Part shown: positions 1,699 through 31,358 of the stretch, piece after piece
Layout: each line of letters opens with the position of its first letter
Numbering within the stretch: the stretch's first letter is position 1
NCBI RefSeq assembly: GCF_024223415.1
Contig: NZ_CP100500.1
Length of the DNA: 64,000 nt
Direction: 5' to 3' (one strand)
Source of the DNA: Escherichia coli
GTDB lineage: Bacteria; Pseudomonadota; Gammaproteobacteria; Enterobacterales; Enterobacteriaceae
Made by a program: the position numbers and the translations under genes
The notes under the pieces: generated by a model
The model's input: the letters and a program-made list of their open reading frames with translations, nothing else
The model's database searches: none
Told to the model about the DNA's origin: nothing

Positions 1699-4600
1699 AT
1701 GAGTCTCTCTTTCAGTGAAGCAAAATTAGAACAAGCGATCATTGAACTGCTGCAGGATCAGGGATATCAACACCTGATCGGCGATAATGTCCCACGTTCA
1801 AGTCTCGATCAGGTCATCATCGAAGACGATCTCCGTCATTATTTAGCGGCACGCTACCAGCCTGATGGCATTACTGAAGAAGAGATTCAACGGCTGATCA
1901 AACAGTTCACCACGCTTCCGGCCTCCGACCTTTATGAAAGCAACAAAACATTTTGTCGCTGGCTGGCAAATGGTTTTCTGTTCAAACGCGACGATCGGCA
2001 ACAAAAAGATCTCTATATTGAATTGCTCGACACCCGGCATCTACCCGCCGCACTGCGCCAGATATTTGACACCGACGATGTCCCGTTGCAACAGGCGGCG
2101 GAACTCCCGCCTTCCTATATTAATCCGCCGCTTAACCGGATTAAGATTGTTAACCAGCTTAAAATCTCCGGTAAAGATAATCAGACTCGTATTCCTGACG
2201 GCATTCTCTATATCAACGGTCTGCCACTGGTCGTCTTTGAATTTAAAAGTGCGGTGCGCGAGCAAGAAGCCAGTATTGGCGATGCCTGGAAGCAGCTCTG
2301 TAAACGCTATCGCCGGGATATTCCGCAACTGTTTATCTACAACGCGCTCTGCGTTATCAGCGATGGCGTAAATAACCGGATGGGCAACCTGTTTGCGCCC
2401 TATGAATACTTTTACTCATGGCGCAAAGTCACCGGTAATGAAAACCGTGAACAGGACGGAATTCCATCATTGCACTCAATGATTCAGGGGCTGTTTCATC
2501 CGGTACGTCTGCTGGACGTGATTAAAAACTTTATCTGCTTCCCGGATAAAGCCAAGCACGAAGTAAAAATTTGCTGCCGATATCCGCAGTACTATGCCGC
2601 CCGCAAACTCTATTACAGCATCAAGCAAGCGCGTAAACCTTTCGGTAGCGGTAAAGGCGGCACCTACTTTGGCGCAACGGGCTGTGGCAAAAGTTACACC
2701 ATGCAATTTTTAACGCGTCTTTTGATGAAGAGCGTGGAGTTTGCCAGCCCGACCATTGTTTTGATCACCGACCGCACCGATCTGGACGATCAGCTTTCTG
2801 CGCAAATGTGCAACGCCAAAAATTACATTGGCGACGACACCATCGTTCCTGTTACCAGCCGTGAAGATTTGCGTAATCAACTGGCGGGACGCAATAGTGG
2901 CGGTGTATTCCTGACAACGATCCATAAATTCACCGAAGACACCGAACTCCTTTCTGAACGCAGCAATATCATTTGCATCTCGGACGAAGCACATCGCAGC
3001 CAGGTTAACCTCGACCAGAAAGTCATCGTCGATAAAGAAAGCGGAAAAGTGCGCAAAACTTATGGCTTTGCGAAATACCTGCACGATTCACTGCCAAACG
3101 CCACCTATGTTGGCTTTACCGGCACACCGATTGACGCGACGCTCGATGTCTTCGGTGAGGTGATCGACAGTTACACCATGACCGAATCCGTTCAGGATGA
3201 AATCACTGTACGCATCGTGTACGAAGGCCGTGCGGCTAAAGTGATCCTGGACTCCAGTAAACTGGAAGAAGTTGAAAAGTATTACGAAGAGTGCGCAAAC
3301 GCAGGCACCAATGAGTGGCAAATCGACGAAAGCAAAAAAGCCACCGCAACCATGAATGCGGTACTGGGTGATGAAGATCGGTTAAAAGCCCTCGCGGAAG
3401 ATTTTGCCAAACATTATGAAAAACGCGTAGACGAAGGTTCCACCGTAAAAGGCAAAGCCATGTTTGTTTGTGCCAGCCGTGAAATTGCCTGGGATTTCTA
3501 CCGTCAGCTTAAAGCTATTCGCCCTGCCTGGTTTGAAGTGAAGCAAGCACCCGATGGCGTCGTCCTGACGGAACAGGAGCAGAAAGAGTTACCGCCTTCA
3601 GAAATGGTGAAGATGGTCATGACGCGCGGTAAAGATGACGACGAGGCGCTTTATGATTTACTGGGCACAAAAGAATATCGTAAAGAGCTGGATAAACAGT
3701 TTAAAAACGCTAAATCGAATTTCAAAATTGCCATTGTTGTTGATATGTGGCTGACCGGTTTCGACGTCCCGGAACTGGATACCATCTATATTGATAAACC
3801 CTTACAAAAACATAATCTTATCCAGACCATTTCTCGCGTTAACCGTAAACTGGAAGGCAAAAGTAAAGGGTTAGTGGTGGACTACATCGGCATTAAAAGT
3901 CAGATGAACCAGGCACTGGCAATGTATTCCCGCATTGATGCCACCAACTTTGAAGATATTCAGCAATCGGTAATAGAAGTTAAAAACCATCTCGATTTGT
4001 TGGGGCAAGTCTTTTACGAATTTGACAGTCGGGATTATTTTAGTGGTGAGCCACAAGCGCAATTATCCTGCCTCAACCGCGCGGCGGAATTTGTTCTGCG
4101 TACCCAGAAAGTTGAACGTCGTTTTATGGGACTGGTTAAACGCATGAAAGCCGCCTACGACGTCTGCTGCGGCAGCGAAGCATTATCACAGACAGAACGT
4201 GACTATATTCACTATTATCTTGCTGTTCGTTCAATTGTTTTCAAACTGACGAAAGGTGACGCACCGGATGTCACCCAGATGAATGCACGCGTTCGTGAAA
4301 TGATTGCAGAAGCGTTAAAAGCTGATGGCGTAGAAGAGATTTATTTTCTTGGCGATAAAAAAGCGGAATCCATCGATATTTTTGACGAAGATTATCTGGC
4401 ACGAATTAACAAGATCAAACTTCCGGCAACGAAGATCCAGTTATTACAAAAATTACTGGAAAAAGCGATCAGCGACTTCAAGAAAGTGAACCAGTTGCAA
4501 GGGATTAACTTCACCCGCCGCTTCCAGGCAATTATAGATCGTTATAATGAGCGGCGAGAAGATGATGTACTCAACGGTGAAGAATTCGATACATTCAGTC

Positions 4601-4962
4601 AGGAAATGACCGATATTATCTATGATATTAAAACCGAAATGGGCACCTGGGCCGATTTAGGCATTGATATTGAAGAAAAAGCGTTTTTCGACATTCTTGC
4701 TCATATGCGCGATAAATATCAGTTCACCTATGACGATGAAAAAATGCTGTCACTGGCAAAAGAGATGAAAAGCGTGGTTGACAACACATCGAAATATCCT
4801 GACTGGAGTAAACGTGATGATATTAAAGCGAAACTGAAAGTTGAACTTATTCTGCTTCTACACAAGCATAAGTTCCCGCCAGTAGCGAATGATGATGTTT
4901 ATATGGGTGTGCTGGCACAGGCAGAGAATTTTAAAGAACACCATATGAGTGCTTTAAATTAA
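1699..4962 (+). CDS. hsdR: Type I restriction enzyme R subunit HsdR (PD-(D/E)xK nuclease plus SF2 helicase motor)
   Basis: ORF track 1687..4962 (TTG); ATG at 1699 with GGAG 7 nt upstream preferred. Motifs: nuclease LPLVVFEFK, helicase motif I GATGCGKS, motif II ISDEAHRSQ, motif III FTGTPID. About 1087 aa. Confidence 0.85.
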   Translation: MSLSFSEAKLEQAIIELLQDQGYQHLIGDNVPRSSLDQVIIEDDLRHYLAARYQPDGITEEEIQRLIKQFTTLPASDLYESNKTFCRWLANGFLFKRDDRQQKDLYIELLDTRHLPAALRQIFDTDDVPLQQAAELPPSYINPPLNRIKIVNQLKISGKDNQTRIPDGILYINGLPLVVFEFKSAVREQEASIGDAWKQLCKRYRRDIPQLFIYNALCVISDGVNNRMGNLFAPYEYFYSWRKVTGNENREQDGIPSLHSMIQGLFHPVRLLDVIKNFICFPDKAKHEVKICCRYPQYYAARKLYYSIKQARKPFGSGKGGTYFGATGCGKSYTMQFLTRLLMKSVEFASPTIVLITDRTDLDDQLSAQMCNAKNYIGDDTIVPVTSREDLRNQLAGRNSGGVFLTTIHKFTEDTELLSERSNIICISDEAHRSQVNLDQKVIVDKESGKVRKTYGFAKYLHDSLPNATYVGFTGTPIDATLDVFGEVIDSYTMTESVQDEITVRIVYEGRAAKVILDSSKLEEVEKYYEECANAGTNEWQIDESKKATATMNAVLGDEDRLKALAEDFAKHYEKRVDEGSTVKGKAMFVCASREIAWDFYRQLKAIRPAWFEVKQAPDGVVLTEQEQKELPPSEMVKMVMTRGKDDDEALYDLLGTKEYRKELDKQFKNAKSNFKIAIVVDMWLTGFDVPELDTIYIDKPLQKHNLIQTISRVNRKLEGKSKGLVVDYIGIKSQMNQALAMYSRIDATNFEDIQQSVIEVKNHLDLLGQVFYEFDSRDYFSGEPQAQLSCLNRAAEFVLRTQKVERRFMGLVKRMKAAYDVCCGSEALSQTERDYIHYYLAVRSIVFKLTKGDAPDVTQMNARVREMIAEALKADGVEEIYFLGDKKAESIDIFDEDYLARINKIKLPATKIQLLQKLLEKAISDFKKVNQLQGINFTRRFQAIIDRYNERREDDVLNGEEFDTFSQEMTDIIYDIKTEMGTWADLGIDIEEKAFFDILAHMRDKYQFTYDDEKMLSLAKEMKSVVDNTSKYPDWSKRDDIKAKLKVELILLLHKHKFPPVANDDVYMGVLAQAENFKEHHMSALN

Positions 4963-4969
4963 TTATGAA

Positions 4970-4995
4970 GGCCGGATACACTTTGTTATCCGGCC
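4970..4995 (+). terminator. Perfect palindrome GGCCGGATA-CACTTTGT-TATCCGGCC downstream of hsdR (terminator or REP-like hairpin)
   Basis: 9-bp inverted repeat with 8-nt loop seen in sequence 8 nt after hsdR stop; no strong T-run, so function uncertain. Confidence 0.35.
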
Positions 4996-5083
4996 ATTCT
5001 GAATTAACGTTAATTTCTCTTCCAGATCTTTCCAGTAACGCTTTTATTATTTTCTATTTTTAGCTGGACTATCCCTGTATTTA

Positions 5084-5099
5084 CTGATGATATATCCAG
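5084..5099 (+). promoter_or_regulatory. Putative LexA (SOS) box CTGATGATATATCCAG upstream of symE
   Basis: Matches CTG-N10-CAG architecture with AT-rich centre; symE is a known SOS-induced gene in K-12. Confidence 0.4.
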
Positions 5100-5103
5100 G
5101 TAT

Positions 5104-5181
5104 TTAGCGCGGTGCGGATGTGCGCCAACACACCCGCACCGCTCATCACAATCACTATTTTCAAGGAATAGCAGTTATGAC
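5104..5181 (-). ncRNA. symR: SymR antisense sRNA (antitoxin of type I TA pair symER); coordinates approximate
   Basis: By position only: region antisense to symE 5' UTR and start codon, includes inverted repeat GCGGTGCGG...CCGCACCGC (5108-5142). Ends not determinable from sequence. Confidence 0.35.
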
Positions 5182-5515
5182 TGACACGCATTCTATTGCA
5201 CAACCGTTCGAAGCAGAAGTCTCCCCGGCAAATAACCGCCAATTAACCGTGAGTTATGCGAGTCGCTACCCGGATTACAGCCGTATTCCCGCCATCACTC
5301 TGAAAGGTCAGTGGCTGGAAGCCGCCGGTTTTGCTACCGGCACGGCGGTAGATGTCAAAGTGATGGACGGCTGTATTGTCCTCACCGCCCAACCACCCGC
5401 CGCCGAAGAGAGCGAACTGATGCAGTCGCTACGCCAGGTGTGCAAACTGTCGGCACGTAAACAAAAGCAGGTGCAGGAGTTTATTGGGGTGATTAGTAGC
5501 AAAACGCCACGCTAA
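5177..5515 (+). CDS. symE: SymE, SOS-induced toxin-like protein (type I toxin-antitoxin)
   Basis: ORF track 5120..5515; internal ATG at 5177 preceded by AGGAA gives the 112-aa product [15 protein letters not shown]... matching my recollection of K-12 SymE. Confidence 0.85.
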
Positions 5516-22000: not shown

Positions 22001-24297
22001 TGAAATTTACCTTGCCAGCCTCCATGACCGGGAACTTCACGCTAAGTAGTGAAACCGCCCGCACCGATGCAAACGGTGATGCCGTGGTCACATTGCGAGG
22101 CACAAAAGCGGGTGAGTTTACAGTTACGGCGACGCTGACCAGAAATAATACCGTTGCTTATCAGCAAGTCACTTTTATTGGGGATACAAACAGTGCGCAG
22201 CTCCAGCCGCTGACTGCCTCATTAAATTCCATTGTTGCGGGTAACAGTACGGGGAGTACCCTGACGGCAACGATCCTGGACGCTTACCAAAATCCGCTTA
22301 AAGACCAGTTGGTCACTTTCCAGAGTAACGATGTCACTCTAAGCGAAACAGAAGTCACCACCAATACGCTGGGTCAGGCGACGGTAACAATGACCAGCAA
22401 TATTGCCGGACAACATAACGTCGTGGTGAGCCGGAAAGCGCAAGCTTCCGATAATAAAACGTTTAGTTTATCAGTGCTGCCGGATGAAAGTTCGGCGAAG
22501 GTAATAAGTATAACCGGAGCCGAAAAAACGATAACGGTTGGCGAAAACATCACGCTACGGATACTCGTCCAGGACGCGTTTAACAATGTAATAGCGGGTC
22601 AACGCGTCAGATTAAGTGCGCAGCCAACAGCTAACATTACGATAGGCGATACGGCTTACACCGATAATAACGGTTATGCGTACGTTAACCTTATTAGCAC
22701 CCAGCCTGGGGTTTATCAGGTGACGGCAACGCTGGACAATAACAGTAGTAGTAAGGTTGACGTGAATGTGGCAAATGGCAAACTCGAGTTAACATCATCG
22801 AAGCCAGAAACCACGGTCCATAACAGTGAAGGTATTACGCTGACCGCAACGGCGAGAAATGCGCAGGGTGAATTGATGCCAGGGCAAATTATCACCTTTA
22901 GCGTAACGCCTGAAGGTGCAACGCTAAGCAATACAGGGGAAGTCCTTACTGACCAGTCAGGTCAGGCCAAAGTGACGCTGACCAGTGACAAAGTGAATGT
23001 CTATACCGTTACGGCCATAATGGGCAAAGATGTTCCCGTTCAGAGCCAGGTAACGGTTGCGGTTAAGGCAGATGCTAAAACGGCACATGTTGTGAGCGTC
23101 GTGGCTTCTCCTGACACCATCACCGCCGACGGCATCGATAGCAGCACCATCACTTCACGAGTAGAAGATGATTACGGATTCCCGGTTGAAGGTGTCGATG
23201 TTAGTCATGGCTTAGACACCAAAGGCAGCCCGGTAGTTAATATTCCAACTACGCGTACCGATCAGTCCGGGCAAGTCACGGCGACAATAACCAGTACATT
23301 GGCAGAAACCTTAACAGTCAATGTGCAAGTTCCTGGTACAGCCAACCAATCCGCAACCATTACATTGGTTGCCGGCACGGCCGATGAAAGTAAGTCAATT
23401 TTGAAATCCGATGTTGACACTCTGAAGGCTGACTACCAGCAGAGCGCAAAACTTACGCTAACATTGCAAGACAAGTACGGTAACCCGATAGTGACGTCTG
23501 ATCATCTGGAATTTGTCCAGTCAGGCCCCTTCGTGAACTTTCTCAAGTTGAGCGATATTGATTACAGCCAAAGAAATTATGGCGAGTACACCGTGACTGT
23601 CACTGGCGGAAAAGAGGGAACAGCGACACTCATTCCCATGCTGAACGGGGTTCATCAGGCAAACTTAAGCATATCGCTGAATCTCATCCAATCGATAAAA
23701 GAAATGTCCGGTCATGTCACTGCAAACAACCATACCTTCTCCACGGCTAAATTCCCGAGCGAAGGCTTTGCAGGGGCGTATTACACACTCAACAATGATA
23801 ACTTTGAAGCGGGTAAAACCGTTGATGATTATATGTTTTCAAGTTCACAGAGTTGGGTGTCTGTCGATGCTTCAGGTAAGGTTTCTTTCGCAAATATCGG
23901 CGATCAAACGTCAGTCACAATAAGCGCTGTTCCCCGACAAGGAGGTACAACCTACCAGACCTTAATTAAGCTGAAAGGCTGGTGGGTGAATAATGGAAAT
24001 CATACCAATATCTGGCTAGCTGCCAATGCGCTCTGTCATGCTAAAAATGATGGATATAATCTTCCTGGCATCACACATTTGACGTCTGGTGAAAACAAAC
24101 GCACGCAGGGATCACTGTATGGTGAATGGGGGAACGTTGGAGCGTTTTCCAGTAATTCGCAATTTACACCGGGAGCTTACTGGACAAGTGAACCTGATGA
24201 TTACAGTCGGCACTACTATGTGCAGATGCTAACCGGTATGACCGGAAGCGACGCTGATTCCAGCCCCCAACTGACCGCCTGCCGTAAATCACTTTAA
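19057..24297 (+). CDS. Intimin/invasin-family inverse autotransporter adhesin (1746 aa): LysM, beta-barrel, about 12 Big_1 Ig-like repeats, C-type lectin-like tip
   Basis: N-terminal LysM-like segment (FGISLEELRRLNQFRT), intimin-type beta-barrel region, repeated roughly 100-aa units with TLTAT/VTAT and GxAxV motifs, Cys-containing C-terminal domain; GGAAGG RBS. Confidence 0.85.
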   Translation: MASTNAHQIKNNDQNSLCGLGDKIRRLTAGVCLFTQFFFPVMATAQNVVHAKPQTTVSSAPPLLENNTVPYTLGALESAQSVADRFGISLEELRRLNQFRTFARGFDNVRQGEELDVPATTSQKSHEQQNAIPPANGENTLENQIASTSQRVGTLLSQDMNSEQASGMARGWASSEASGAMTDWLNNFGTAKISLGVDEDFSLKNSQFDFLHPWYDTPDYLLFSQHTLHRTDDRTQINTGLGWRHFTSSWMSGINLFFDHDLSRYHSRAGLGAEYWRDYLKLSSNAYIGLTGWRSAPELDYDFETRPANGWDLRAEGWLPAWPQLGGKLVYEQYYGDEVALFDKNDRQSNPHAITAGLNYTPFPLLTLSAEQRQGKQGENDTRFAVDLTWQPSSSIQKQLNPDEVAGRRSLAGSRYDLIDRNNNIVLEYRKKELIRLSLLDPVKGKSGEIKPLVSSLQTKYALKGYNIEAAALEAAGGKVSTSGKDITVTLPGYRFTNTPETDNTWSIDVTAEDVKGNMSRHEQSMVVIQAPTLSQKDSLLSVNPLTVAADKKSTTTLTVTAHDSDGTPVPGLALQTRSEGVQDITLSDWTDNGDGSYTQILTAGTTSGSVTLMPQINGESAVKESIVVNIVPVVSSRDHSSITIDNVSYYAGDDIKVRVELKDESNQPVAYQKEELVKAVTVENSKPGTTIIWHEEQPGVYTANYPAHKQGTALRAQLSLHNWNAPLQSHIYNIEANQNKARVATLSATNNDVYADKKTFNTLTINVTDESDNPLINHQVTFKNEKGSAEFVEPPQQNTDGYGVATINMVSQVAEENTISATLPNGFSQRIIAKFVSDSSTPKFKQLVADPDTIIAGNSQGSTLTAIVTDFHNNPLKDMKVNFVAPGGSQLDNTTATTDQSGIVRVHLTSSKAGSYSVDASLEVDKNIHQSVTITVVPNREQSVMTLNAGSGSAIANNTNIVTLTASVKDVYGHPLPDEDVKFTLPASMTGNFTLSSETARTDANGDAVVTLRGTKAGEFTVTATLTRNNTVAYQQVTFIGDTNSAQLQPLTASLNSIVAGNSTGSTLTATILDAYQNPLKDQLVTFQSNDVTLSETEVTTNTLGQATVTMTSNIAGQHNVVVSRKAQASDNKTFSLSVLPDESSAKVISITGAEKTITVGENITLRILVQDAFNNVIAGQRVRLSAQPTANITIGDTAYTDNNGYAYVNLISTQPGVYQVTATLDNNSSSKVDVNVANGKLELTSSKPETTVHNSEGITLTATARNAQGELMPGQIITFSVTPEGATLSNTGEVLTDQSGQAKVTLTSDKVNVYTVTAIMGKDVPVQSQVTVAVKADAKTAHVVSVVASPDTITADGIDSSTITSRVEDDYGFPVEGVDVSHGLDTKGSPVVNIPTTRTDQSGQVTATITSTLAETLTVNVQVPGTANQSATITLVAGTADESKSILKSDVDTLKADYQQSAKLTLTLQDKYGNPIVTSDHLEFVQSGPFVNFLKLSDIDYSQRNYGEYTVTVTGGKEGTATLIPMLNGVHQANLSISLNLIQSIKEMSGHVTANNHTFSTAKFPSEGFAGAYYTLNNDNFEAGKTVDDYMFSSSQSWVSVDASGKVSFANIGDQTSVTISAVPRQGGTTYQTLIKLKGWWVNNGNHTNIWLAANALCHAKNDGYNLPGITHLTSGENKRTQGSLYGEWGNVGAFSSNSQFTPGAYWTSEPDDYSRHYYVQMLTGMTGSDADSSPQLTACRKSL

Positions 24298-24420
24298 TTT
24301 CAGCAGTTGTTATTAAAGGATACCCTTTTACGAGGGTATCCTTTCAGACTGATAACAAACGCTACATTGCCGGATGTGCTGCGCTTATCAGGCCTATATA
24401 GCCCCTGCAATATATTGAAT

Positions 24421-25005
24421 TTATTGTTTTTGTACCCCAGTCGGCATAAACGACCACTCAAGAAACTCAACAGCAACCGTTGATGTCAGCCAGACCCCGT
24501 TTTCCGCTTGCCAGAAAGGGATGCCTCGTTTCGCCATCTCCTGTGCTTTGACGGTTAAGATAACCGGCGATCCGTGTCTTGCTCCCACTTTGCGTGCCGT
24601 TGCTTCATCAGCAGAGAGATGCACGTAATGACGATCCCCTGCAATCAGCCCCTGTTTTTTTATCTCGTCAAGGAAACGGCTTGCCGTACCGTGGTAGAGA
24701 AACTGTGGCGGTGTTTTTTCGGCAAAGGAAATAGCGACCTGCGAAGTCGAATGCCCCTGAACCGCGCGGATGCACCTACCATCACTGGAATAACTAAAAC
24801 GCTTTTTATCGCTGGTGGCGACCACGGTATCCAGCAATGCACGGGTTAATCGCTTGCCCGCTTTTTGGGCACAAAGTATGAGCTTATCGATATCCGCCCA
24901 TCCTTCACGGTCCAGTACGATACCTATCGCCTCCGGTTTGTGTCGGAGGACAAAACTTAAAAACTTGCTCGTATCCGCCAGCTCTTTTTCGTTGTGCTTT
25001 GCCAT
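24421..25005 (-). CDS. kptA: RNA 2'-phosphotransferase KptA (Tpt1 family)
   Basis: ORF track 24421..25107; start moved to [25 protein letters not shown] at 25005 by comparison with Tpt1/KptA N-terminus; longer upstream frame probably not translated. Confidence 0.85.
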
Positions 25006-25242
25006 CTCGTTTTCGTCCCTGGATTTTCTGTTTTTATTTACCAATGTCATTGTCACTGGGTTTATGAATTTTCTGCAACTTAATCCTGCGCAGAACCTTT
25101 TCCACACAGCGTAATGTTTCCCCTATGCAAAAAACGCATAGCCAGAAACATACTTGCATTTTCCCCATACCCACATGGCTGATAAGGTTTTTCAGTTCCA
25201 GGAATTTTCCTGGCTCAAGCAACACACAAACACAAAAAAACA

Positions 25243-27645: not shown

Positions 27646-28557
27646 ATGGATGACTGTGGTGCGGTTTTGCATAATATTGAAACCAAATGGCTTTATGATT
27701 TTCTGACTCTGGAAAAATGCCGCAATTTTTCCCAGGCGGCAGTCAGTCGCAACGTCTCGCAACCGGCATTCAGCCGCCGCATCCGTGCACTGGAACAGGC
27801 GATTGGCGTTGAATTGTTTAACCGCCAGGTGACGCCGCTGCAACTCTCAGAACAAGGGAAAATCTTCCATTCGCAGATCCGCCATCTGTTGCAACAGTTA
27901 GAAAGTAACCTTGCAGAGCTGCGTGGCGGCAGCGATTACGCGCAACGTAAAATCAAGATAGCCGCTGCACACTCTCTTTCCCTCGGTCTGTTACCGTCCA
28001 TTATCAGCCAGATGCCGCCGCTCTTTACCTGGGCGATTGAAGCTATTGATGTCGATGAAGCAGTCGATAAACTGCGCGAAGGGCAAAGTGACTGTATTTT
28101 TTCCTTTCACGACGAAGATTTGCTGGAAGCGCCGTTTGACCACATTCGCTTATTTGAATCTCAATTGTTCCCCGTTTGCGCCAGTGACGAACACGGAGAA
28201 GCACTTTTTAACCTCGCGCAGCCACACTTTCCGTTACTGAATTACAGCCGCAACTCCTACATGGGGCGATTGATTAATCGCACCCTGACGCGCCACAGTG
28301 AGTTAAGTTTCAGCACCTTTTTTGTCTCTTCGATGAGCGAGCTTTTAAAGCAGGTTGCCCTCGACGGCTGTGGGATTGCCTGGCTGCCGGAATACGCCAT
28401 CCAACAAGAAATTCGCAGCGGGCAGCTCGTTGTACTGAATCGGGACGAACTGGTGATCCCGATTCAGGCCTATGCATACCGAATGAATACCCGCATGAAT
28501 CCTGTTGCCGAACGCTTCTGGCGTGAACTGCGCGAGCTGGAGATTGTGCTTAGCTGA
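27646..28557 (+). CDS. hypT: LysR-type transcriptional regulator HypT (YjiE), hypochlorite-responsive
   Basis: 303 aa; N-terminal LysR HTH ([29 protein letters not shown]). Confidence 0.9.
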
Positions 28558-28942
28558 CATTCTCCAGCGTCGCACTGCGCCAACCGCCATTATCCCAGAC
28601 CAGATCAAACGTTAGCGGTTCATCGTCGTGGTACAGCATTATCTCAAGGCTGATCGCCAGAGTGTGGCAGTACGCTTCTTTCAAATTAACCTGCAACGCC
28701 GCAATCCGTGGCTCATGAAATAACAGTGCAGAACGCAGCTGACGGCAATACCAGCTCTGGAGATGTTTGTCGCTCGGGTTATGCACTTGCCACTCGGGCA
28801 TGCCTGAAACAAGTAATGACGGTAATGCCGAATGAGGAGAATTAAAAAGAGTGAGGAGATCGCTGCATACCGATTTACGCAGCAATGACGTTTTATTGCC
28901 TGAAATTTCAGGTAAAACAGCCTGAAGTGATTGGCGCATCAT
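28550..28942 (-). CDS. iraD: Anti-adaptor protein IraD (RssB inhibitor)
   Basis: ORF track 28550..28951; start at [15 protein letters not shown] (28942) by recollection of K-12 IraD, about 130 aa. Confidence 0.8.
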
Positions 28943-29613
28943 TTTGCGCACTCCTGACGTTTAGCAACATATGCGGCTTGCCCTGAACACCGGGCACCAC
29001 TGTATTGATGCTCATTTTCCATAGCCATTCCCTTTTGTTCATTACATCCATGTCAGTCTGAGACAGGCCTGAATCCTGTCAGCAAAGTATAAAACCTTAC
29101 TTGCCTATGAATATCTACTGACTTTTCAGGAAAAAAGTCATGATTTGATAAAAATCATCAAACTCAAAAAAAAACCGCTAGTATATTCTGAATATTCCGA
29201 ATAGTTACGTAGATGAAAATACTTGTCACCGCTGCTACTTAATTCCGGTGGGAAATTATTTATTTCCGCATAATCAGCCATGTATTATTTGAAACAATTA
29301 GTTTGTAAATAATATAAATTGATAACATATCAAATACATCAAAAATAACATTCACAGGCATTATTAATATAGACCTCAATATAGCAACATCAAATTCCAA
29401 TTAGTAATAAGATATGCTTTTAAATTGCATGAAAATAATTTCAAATGAGCGTTTTTTGATACTTTAGAGTGTTTCCTACCCTTTAATATCACCGTGTAGA
29501 GTTGATATCACTACAACAGAAACATGCATGTCATTTTTTTACTTCTTTTTTACTACAGAAAAATTTATCTATTTTTCTAAACATCAGTGAAATACTCATA
29601 AAAGGTAACTATT

Positions 29614-30444
29614 ATGTCTATGCCATTAAGCAATGCCCTTCAGAGTCAAATTATTACAGATAATCACTTCCTTCATCACCCAAAAGTCGACAATGAGTTA
29701 ACACGTAAATATGAACGAGCACGCCTGGATACGGAAAATATCTATCTTCTGCCTCTTGCTCGTGGCAATAACCATAATTACGATGGAAAAAGCGTTGTCG
29801 AAATTAGAAAACTTGATATTAGTAAAGAGTCCTGGCCATTTAATTATGTGACAGAAGCATGCAGAGAATCCGATGGTATTACAACAACAGGACGTATGCT
29901 CTATCGAAACTTGAAAATCACCTCAGCTTTAGACGAAATATATGGTGGCATATGTAAAAAGGCGCATGCTGCTACAGAATTAGCAGAAGGTTTACGGCTA
30001 AACTTATTTATGAAGAGCCCTTTCGATCCTGTTGAGGACTATACAGTTCATGAAATAACATTAGGCCCTGGTTGCAATGTTCCTGGTTATGCCGGAACCA
30101 CGATAGGATATATTTCAACCCTTCCAGCTTCTCAGGCAAAAAGATGGACCAATGAGCAGCCAAGAATTGATATCTATATTGATCAGATAATAACTGTCTC
30201 AGGGGTAGCAAATTCTTCCGGATTCGCCCTTGCCGCATTACTTAATGCTAATATTGAGATGGGAAATGACCCAATCATTGGTATAGAAGCCTATCCTGGT
30301 ACCGCGGAGAACCATGCAAAAATGGGATATAACGTTATCCCCGGTGATGAAGATGCGCCACTCAAACGCATGACTCTGCAACCGTCATCTCTTCCAGAAC
30401 TGTTTGAATTAAAAAATGGTGAATGGAATTATATTGGTAAATAG
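29614..30444 (+). CDS. yjiC: Uncharacterised protein YjiC
   Basis: 276-aa ORF downstream of a roughly 600-bp strongly AT-rich leader; synteny. Confidence 0.8.
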   Translation: MSMPLSNALQSQIITDNHFLHHPKVDNELTRKYERARLDTENIYLLPLARGNNHNYDGKSVVEIRKLDISKESWPFNYVTEACRESDGITTTGRMLYRNLKITSALDEIYGGICKKAHAATELAEGLRLNLFMKSPFDPVEDYTVHEITLGPGCNVPGYAGTTIGYISTLPASQAKRWTNEQPRIDIYIDQIITVSGVANSSGFALAALLNANIEMGNDPIIGIEAYPGTAENHAKMGYNVIPGDEDAPLKRMTLQPSSLPELFELKNGEWNYIGK

Positions 30445-30584
30445 CCACTGAGAAGAATGAGTACTAATATTCAGGTTATACAGATATTTAAACAATACCC
30501 TGCAATTTACAAAGTAATACTCATTGCGACTTCTTAATTTAAGAAAGCGCAAGGAACGTTTACCCTTGCGCTTATTATAATAAG

Positions 30585-31358
30585 TCAGGCGTCGACTTTA
30601 TCCAGCGGCCATGAATCAAACAGATAGCCGTCAAAATAAATATCGTCAACGTTCGAGAATTCCAGCAGACGTTGCTTAACGTTTTCCAGATGCTGCCACA
30701 TTGCCAGCTTCGCCGCTCGGGCATCTTTTTTGATTAACGCGGCGAGGATCTGTTTGTGATCGCCCAACCACTCTTTGCGATACAGGCTGTCATCCAGATG
30801 GCTGTGCAACTGGATCCACATTGGATTGTTTTCCCGCCACTGCCAGGACTGACGGAATAACTCCACCAGCATGCTGTTATGCGTTGCTTCGGCAATGGCG
30901 AGATGGAACTGCATATCACCGCTTTCGCTGCTACCCGGCGCGCTGGAAGCCAGTTCACGCTCTTCCAGTTGCAATGCCTGACGCATTTTGACGATATCTT
31001 CGCGGGTAGCCTGCAGGGCGGCAAACTCGGCGATGTTACTTTCCAGTAACTGACGCGCCTGTAACAGCTCAAAAGGACCCGCATCATTGCAGACGTTGGC
31101 ATCCGGACTGTCTGTGTTGTGGCTGCCTGAGCTATCAAGAACATAGATACCGGCACCCCGGCGCACTTCCACCAGCCCTTTGATCTCCAGCATGATCAGC
31201 GCTTCACGTACCACCGTCCGCGTGACATCAAGCATTTCTGCAATTTCACGCTCCGGCGGTAGCCGTTCACCAGGATTGTACGGCGTCTTTATGATCAGAT
31301 CGCGGATCATCGCCCCGACTTCCTGGTAAGGTCTTTGCGCAGAGGTGGCAGATTTCAT
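30585..31358 (-). CDS. uxuR: Hexuronate regulon repressor UxuR (GntR/FadR family)
   Basis: 257 aa; GntR HTH (EREIAEMLDVTRTVVREALIMLEIKGLVEVRRGAGIYV). Confidence 0.95.
   Translation of the reverse strand: MKSATSAQRPYQEVGAMIRDLIIKTPYNPGERLPPEREIAEMLDVTRTVVREALIMLEIKGLVEVRRGAGIYVLDSSGSHNTDSPDANVCNDAGPFELLQARQLLESNIAEFAALQATREDIVKMRQALQLEERELASSAPGSSESGDMQFHLAIAEATHNSMLVELFRQSWQWRENNPMWIQLHSHLDDSLYRKEWLGDHKQILAALIKKDARAAKLAMWQHLENVKQRLLEFSNVDDIYFDGYLFDSWPLDKVDA

Follow-up and report, generated by a model that had tools for sequence, protein, structure and literature searches.

The 64-kb E. coli window (the whole stretch of DNA analysed, 64,000 nucleotides) contains the genes iadA(+), hypT(+), iraD(-), yjiC(+), and uxuR(-) in this order. 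The divergent iraD(-) and yjiC(+) genes are separated by a gap of 671 bp (28943-29613), raising the question of what this long and AT-rich interval encodes, and on behalf of which of the two genes. The evidence very strongly favours one answer: the gap is the known E. coli iraD control region, lying back to back with the yjiC promoter region in AT-rich DNA that is reportedly bound by H-NS. The feature is already characterised in the literature, and the composition and length of the gap are real. The functional evidence consists of K-12 experiments, carried to this strain by sequence identity.

The gap sequence is found in 4890 of 5426 complete E. coli genomes, in one copy each, with 100% identity to E. 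coli SCU-316 and 99.3% identity to K-12 derivatives. Its GC content is 0.319 versus 0.485 for the window, a value as low in just 1.45% of the 671-bp windows of the 64 kb, and it contains nine A or T runs of at least five bases and twice the window frequency of TpA steps. These values bear out the original prediction of a long, strongly AT-rich gap with A/T tracts between divergent iraD and yjiC. The extent given there, 28952-29613 (GC 0.316), has the correct right edge and a left edge displaced by nine bases, a GTG at 28951 having been used in place of the annotated iraD ATG at 28942. AT-richness is unevenly distributed, with a GC content of 0.48 in the 137 bp adjoining iraD (28943-29079), 0.29 over 29080-29359, and 0.26 over 29360-29613. 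Low GC runs on through yjiC (0.40) and its 3' flank up to 30584, with a value of 0.35 over 29100-30584 versus that of the window. At the other end of iraD, hypT (ending at 28557) and iraD (ending at 28550) are convergent, and their 3' ends overlap by 8 bp.

The gap corresponds to the K-12 iraD P1/P2 region (Park 2017; Sass 2021), occupying the same locus with the same synteny, hypT-iraD-yjiC-uxuR. Comparison with K-12 over 681 bp reveals six substitutions (one in iraD, one in the P1 leader at 29348, and four upstream of P1) and a deletion of 1 bp near 29546, also upstream of P1. Since this sole indel lies upstream of P1, published iraD-relative numbers convert directly to window coordinates (window position = 28942 + distance). 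The P1 and P2 hexamers, the four CsrA GGA sites, the DnaA box, idlP, ytiC, and ytiD are identical here and in K-12, and the K-12 differences touch no mapped element. Judged by this alignment, all published iraD control elements appear to be present at the coordinates given below, with a single change, at 29348. The features, ordered from iraD toward yjiC, are as follows.

28550-28942, minus strand: iraD coding sequence, encoding the anti-adaptor that protects RpoS from RssB/ClpXP (RefSeq annotation here and in K-12).
28924-28954, minus strand: predicted hairpin in which the iraD SD GGAG (28952-28955) pairs with early coding sequence (MFE fold of the P2 leader).
28939-29022, minus strand: idlP (ORF27), encoding a 27-aa leader peptide (RefSeq; sequence; PMC5574718).
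29015-29023, plus strand: DnaA box TTTTCCATA "at -81" (pattern search; function from Sass 2021).
29019-29054, minus strand: CsrA sites BS4 (29019-29020), BS3 (29026-29032, over the idlP SD), and BS2 (29045-29054), from footprints at -78/-77, -90 to -84, and -112 to -103.
29074-29076, minus strand: GGA core of CsrA site BS1, just downstream of the P2 TSS (published site and sequence).
29079-29091, minus strand: P2 promoter, with TSS A at 29079, -10 hexamer TATACT at 29086-29091, and a poor -35 (TSS from Sass 2021, and sequence).
29119-29140, strand not assigned: perfect 8-bp inverted repeat, TGACTTTT-N6-AAAAGTCA (sequence; predicted hairpin).
29138-29281, minus strand: ytiD (ORF47), translated in K-12 (RefSeq).
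29260-29328, minus strand: ytiC (ORF23), translated in K-12 (RefSeq).
29359-29393, minus strand: P1 promoter, with TSS G at 29359, -10 hexamer TATATT at 29366-29371, -35 hexamer TTGATG at 29388-29393, and a 16-bp spacer (TSS from Sass 2021, and consensus scan).
29080-29359, minus strand: P1-specific iraD leader, 280 nt, GC 0.29, with a predicted closed fold (MFE prediction).
29360-29613, strand not assigned: DNA upstream of P1, common to the putative yjiC promoter and 5' UTR; GC 0.26 and the most polymorphic segment.
29614-30444, plus strand: yjiC coding sequence (DUF2686, YjfZ/YjiC family), with its ATG at 29614 (annotation).

The position of the gap, the distances of the P1 and P2 hexamers, the overlap of the 27-codon idlP, and the four GGA sites all match the iraD regulatory region. 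The P1 and P2 promoters of iraD are reportedly associated with Merrikh/Lovett. In K-12, the two iraD start sites lie at -417 (P1) and -137 (P2) relative to the ATG; P1 is induced in late log and stationary phase, P2 is active in all growth phases, and both ppGpp and the replication inhibitor AZT act on the two promoters (Sass 2021). A consensus scan independently recovers TTGATG-16-TATATT (29393-29366), ending 7 nt before the published P1 TSS, and the TATACT of P2 likewise ends 7 nt before its published TSS. Transcription from P1 makes 417 of the 671 bp of the gap an iraD leader on the minus strand. K-12 RNA-seq after AZT gives an induction of 260-fold for ytiC (the most induced gene in the cell), 33-fold for ytiD, 18-fold for idlP, 14-fold for iraD, and 11-fold for yjiC.

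DnaA-ATP represses P1 and P2, partly via the box at -81; DnaA shifts a 672-bp fragment in EMSA, and SspA also modulates iraD expression (Sass 2021). The box overlaps the idlP ATG (29020-29022) and CsrA site BS4. DnaA boxes occur in the whole window at chance frequency (127 versus 129), so the assignment of the -81 box rests on published mutagenesis and not on enrichment. The inverted repeat is positioned at -61 to -40 relative to the P2 TSS, where it overlaps the ytiD stop, and its right arm is kept across Escherichia. With P1, P2, DnaA binding, and the CsrA sites on the leader RNA, the gap is densely regulatory, and the suggestion that it may hold regulatory sites is supported. IraD stabilises RpoS, the general stress sigma factor, and through it the region makes the stress response answer to replication stress (via DnaA), starvation (via ppGpp and SspA), and carbon status (via CsrA), a connection that is already established. 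Both iraD promoters are naturally deleted in E. coli 2018-18.25PC, in which two IS1 copies (locus 3684-5234) stand in place of yjiC and everything upstream of ~29067. What is left beside uxuR is iraD, idlP, and a stretch of P2 leader that stops just short of the P2 TSS.

Adjacent to iraD, the idlP TGA overlaps the iraD ATG as ATGA. Four CsrA sites are footprinted on the iraD leader RNA, and CsrA represses translation of idlP; its repression of iraD operates entirely via translational coupling, the iraD SD being sequestered and the iraD start overlapping the idlP stop (Park 2017, PMC5574718). Translation of iraD, whose SD lies hidden in a hairpin, therefore takes place only when idlP is translated. 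The footprinted CsrA positions fall on GGA cores at 29018-29020 (BS4), 29029-29031 (BS3), and 29047-29049 (BS2) in this strain. CsrA would bind the four GGA sites around the idlP start and block translation of idlP and, hence, of iraD. The ~30 nt directly before the iraD ATG do not vary among six aligned Escherichia lineages. Nor does the SD hairpin vary, which leaves the covariation test on the six Escherichia sequences uninformative; the fold of the whole P2 leader has a z score of 0.1.

Farther from iraD, the P1-derived leader contains two more minus-strand ORFs, ytiC and ytiD. lacZ fusions to ORF23, ORF47, and ORF27 are all expressed, and start-to-stop mutations in ORF23 and ORF47 leave iraD expression unchanged (Park 2017, PMC5574718). 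The original prediction, which saw no convincing ORF here and read the interval as a leader upstream of yjiC, fails on both counts: idlP, ytiD, and ytiC are annotated and translated, and the mapped promoters belong to iraD on the opposite strand. A long AT-rich gap that seems empty can thus hold the leader of the opposite gene together with small translated ORFs.

Conservation distinguishes the parts of this region. Among 13 E. coli alleles (97.5-100% identity), the P2 leader contains 0.7 variable sites per 100 nt, the P1-P2 segment 5.0, and the DNA upstream of P1 7.5, and the IdlP protein is identical in all 13 genomes. The E. albertii counterparts of these three parts are 82%, 64%, and 55% identical, respectively, and a block of 63 nt around P2 is near-identical. 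The alignment shows no conservation of the P1 -10 hexamer in E. albertii. At IraD-anchored loci, idlP with its overlapping stop/start and the P2 block are kept in E. albertii, E. whittamii, and three further lineages. yjiC, by comparison, is present only in E. albertii (63% amino acid identity) among these five other Escherichia lineages. In the four yjiC-less lineages, ~410-420 bp separate the uxuR stop from the iraD ATG. Their homology to the E. coli leader can be followed clearly to ~-270 and is doubtful from ~-270 to ~-420, which places the end of the yjiC indel close to P1 and the P1 core promoter on yjiC-side DNA. The P1 promoter DNA is absent from the same four lineages.

As judged from these alignments, only the P2-idlP-iraD module appears to be under strong constraint, both within E. 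coli and across Escherichia, while P1, ytiC, ytiD, and yjiC appear to sit in AT-rich DNA that evolves fast and is patchily distributed. The first three seem to have been added recently, in connection with the yjiC insertion, and yjiC itself looks horizontally acquired. Citrobacter, source of the nearest homologues outside the genus, was tried as an outgroup for the iraD neighbourhood and rejected, since its matches are tssE in T6SS clusters and lack synteny; whether yjiC was gained or lost could therefore not be decided. These comparative results are a modest addition to a known locus.

Upstream of P1, two blocks are conserved with E. albertii (29438-29465 and 29573-29593). The first, AAAGTATCAAAAAACGCTCATTTGAAAT (minus strand), lies ~80-105 bp upstream of the P1 TSS and is near-identical in E. 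albertii within surroundings of ~55% identity, making it a candidate regulator site for P1 and/or yjiC. In E. coli 3090, yjiC is a frameshifted pseudogene (locus 2211-2961), and yjiC is also not listed at the four other most divergent alleles of the sample (97.7-97.8% identity). A protein 99% identical to E. coli IraD is encoded on a 605-bp contig of the "Bacillus coahuilensis m4-4" assembly; this contig is most likely E. coli contamination.

The P1-specific leader raises the possibility of a further function at the RNA level. Its predicted MFE is -74.1 kcal/mol versus -49.8 ± 4.4 kcal/mol in dinucleotide shuffles (z = -5.5), beyond all 160 same-length background windows (mean z -0.67, SD 1.16, minimum -4.17). 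The fold model closes with a 13-bp helix between P1 +1 to +13 (29359-29347) and 29115-29103 and further comprises a long irregular arm that buries the ytiD start and three local hairpins. Such a fold could constitute an E. coli-specific, discrete RNA domain (29359-29080, minus strand) with a role of its own: stabilising and protecting the damage-induced P1 transcript, masking the ytiD start, or giving rise to a stable processed RNA behind the 260-fold induction of ytiC versus 14-fold for iraD; in a linked evolutionary reading, P1, inducible by damage and in stationary phase, would have been recruited from AT-rich DNA travelling with yjiC. The z score stays strong in K-12 (-4.8) and a divergent E. 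coli allele (-5.2), and folding is stronger on the sense strand (-5.9) than on the antisense strand (-4.25). However, the antisense value itself indicates that much of the fold signal reflects inverted symmetry at the DNA level, and the E. albertii homologue of the segment has a z score of +1.8. Predicted stems, which take in 66% of positions, show no depletion of variable sites among the 13 E. coli alleles (9 of 14); five of the stem changes keep the pair, four break it, and none is compensatory on both sides. Neither covariation nor conservation in relatives, as expected of a structured cis-regulatory RNA, was found for the segment, whose signal is confined to E. coli. Translation of ytiC and ytiD would, moreover, unfold the structure, and the ORF23 and ORF47 start-to-stop mutations are without effect on iraD. 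A functional structure in the P1-P2 segment is therefore possible but unlikely.

Among the background windows, the most structured, 24201-24480 (minus strand, z = -4.2), spans the gap between a convergent 1746-aa ORF (ending at 24297) and a minus-strand ORF at 24421-25107 and is probably a bidirectional terminator or REP-type element.

The two ORFs in the P1-P2 segment might themselves encode small proteins with their own functions, since both are translated and strongly induced by replication stress and a YtiC-like family exists in Pfam. Their distribution makes this improbable. Neither is intact in any of the five other Escherichia lineages, E. albertii included, and in one E. coli lineage the ytiD start ATG has become ATA and ytiC is cut short (TGG to TAG), both through one G-to-A substitution. 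Across the 13 E. coli genomes, ytiC is annotated with 22, 32, 33, or 38 aa or not at all, and YtiD, which is without a Pfam match, has at least five protein alleles versus a single protein accession for IdlP. From this pattern, ytiC and ytiD appear to be unstable ORFs confined to E. coli. The Pfam profile in question (PF23685) comprises 33 residues, of which ytiC matches positions 12-33 only. The ATG of the 33-codon ytiC (29359-29361) has the published P1 TSS as its G and is thus untranslatable from the P1 transcript. Within ytiD, a 9-bp tandem repeat, TATTCGGAA/TATTCAGAA (29181-29201, minus strand), gives rise to the SEYSEY motif of YtiD; it is present as a single copy in E. albertii and in both copies in the yjiC-less lineages.

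We also consider it quite unlikely that yjiC, on the plus strand, takes up most of the gap with a long untranslated 5' leader and an H-NS-silenced promoter. No start site is mapped for yjiC, and a weak plus-strand TTGATA-16-AAAAAT at 29319-29346 would yield a leader of ~260 nt; promoter-like sites are, however, no more frequent in the gap than in shuffles (4 versus 4.4 in the consensus scan), so that their number is uninformative here. AT-richness, the tabled H-NS binding, and the co-induction of yjiC by AZT are consistent with such a leader, but the 417 bp nearest iraD are transcribed the opposite way, from P1 and P2. The remaining segment, 29360-29613, is the least conserved part, and its plus-strand fold is unremarkable (z = -0.5). 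A literature search for yjiC returned almost exclusively an unrelated Bacillus glycosyltransferase and no mapped yjiC TSS. The putative yjiC promoter must lie within 29360-29613 or further in, leaving ~38% of the gap without a demonstrated function.

An independent small regulatory RNA gene is highly improbable: the steep gradient from ytiC to iraD after AZT could reflect a short P1-derived RNA, and the P1-P2 segment has a highly structured predicted fold, but the gradient is also explained by a constitutive P2 that lifts the idlP and iraD baseline, and neither an Rfam match, nor a terminator-like site on either strand, nor an annotated RNA gene was found. Specifically, Rfam searches yield no match in the gap at the gathering score (whole window) and chance-level matches only at a permissive E-value (28400-30700); the terminator scan of 28800-29750 returns zero sites on both strands; and RNA genes are annotated in the gap in 0 of 13 E. 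coli RefSeq genomes. Among the Term-seq 3' ends listed (Adams 2021), none falls between 81 bp beyond the yjiC start codon and ~53 bp into the P2 leader, on K-12 coordinates. These searches give no evidence for a separate sRNA gene, and this part of the original prediction is not upheld.

The only family at the Rfam gathering score in the 64 kb is the SymR antitoxin RNA (RF01809, 91.7 bits) at 5106-5182 (minus strand). The Adams 2021 table also contains a significant site antisense to yjiC (K-12 4555483, plus strand; within window positions 29614-30444), which we took to be bicyclomycin (Rho)-sensitive. If so, transcription from the uxuR side toward iraD would be stopped by Rho inside yjiC.

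The AT-rich composition itself was originally read as typical of H-NS-silenced promoters. A table in PMC3661553 lists a 526-bp yjiC(-)/iraD(+) "promoter island", given in an older K-12 numbering and associated with predicted foreign (horizontally acquired) genes; H-NS binding is marked for it in both the Kahramanoglou (MG1655) and the Oshima (W3110) ChIP data. An inhibition of IraD expression by H-NS has been reported as well (Battesti 2012, as cited in PMC6064147). The sequence agrees with xenogeneic DNA in two respects: AT content is far above average over several hundred bp (29080-29613), and yjiC is patchy in a way that fits gain or loss, being absent from four of five other Escherichia lineages and IS1-replaced or frameshifted in some E. 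coli. The high-affinity H-NS 10-mer motif (TCGATAAATT-like) is not enriched, with one 1-mismatch site (29562-29571) versus 2.0 expected from composition. The original reading thus stands in part, an H-NS-type regulatory region being supported at second hand by the tabled binding and, on the sequence side, by composition only. With transcription start sites mapped and H-NS binding reported in these sources, the idea of an H-NS-type regulatory region survives, with iraD as the gene to which the mapped promoters belong.

The iraD control region also has likenesses to other known systems. With leader-ORF coupling systems that employ an SD-sequestering hairpin, it shares an upstream ORF whose stop overlaps the downstream start (ATGA), a paired downstream SD, and a regulator, here CsrA, acting at the initiation region of the upstream ORF. 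The AT-rich yjiC/iraD gap is also one of 78 H-NS-bound promoter islands (Panyukov and Ozoline 2013); such islands are described as almost transcriptionally silent, whereas this one has two productive, well-characterised promoters. A further likeness concerns the protein. The iraD product matches Pfam PF04965 (GPW_gp25; E = 2.9e-13), the family of TssE and phage gp25, and is 52-54% identical to Citrobacter proteins encoded between hcp and tssF (T6SS), some of which carry the source name "anti-adapter protein IraD" (match 4001-4381 in the extracted loci). Since these IraD-like proteins are tssE in complete T6SS clusters, Escherichia IraD looks like an orphaned TssE/gp25-family gene. In Escherichia, by contrast, iraD stands alone between hypT and uxuR/yjiC, equipped with its own elaborate leader.
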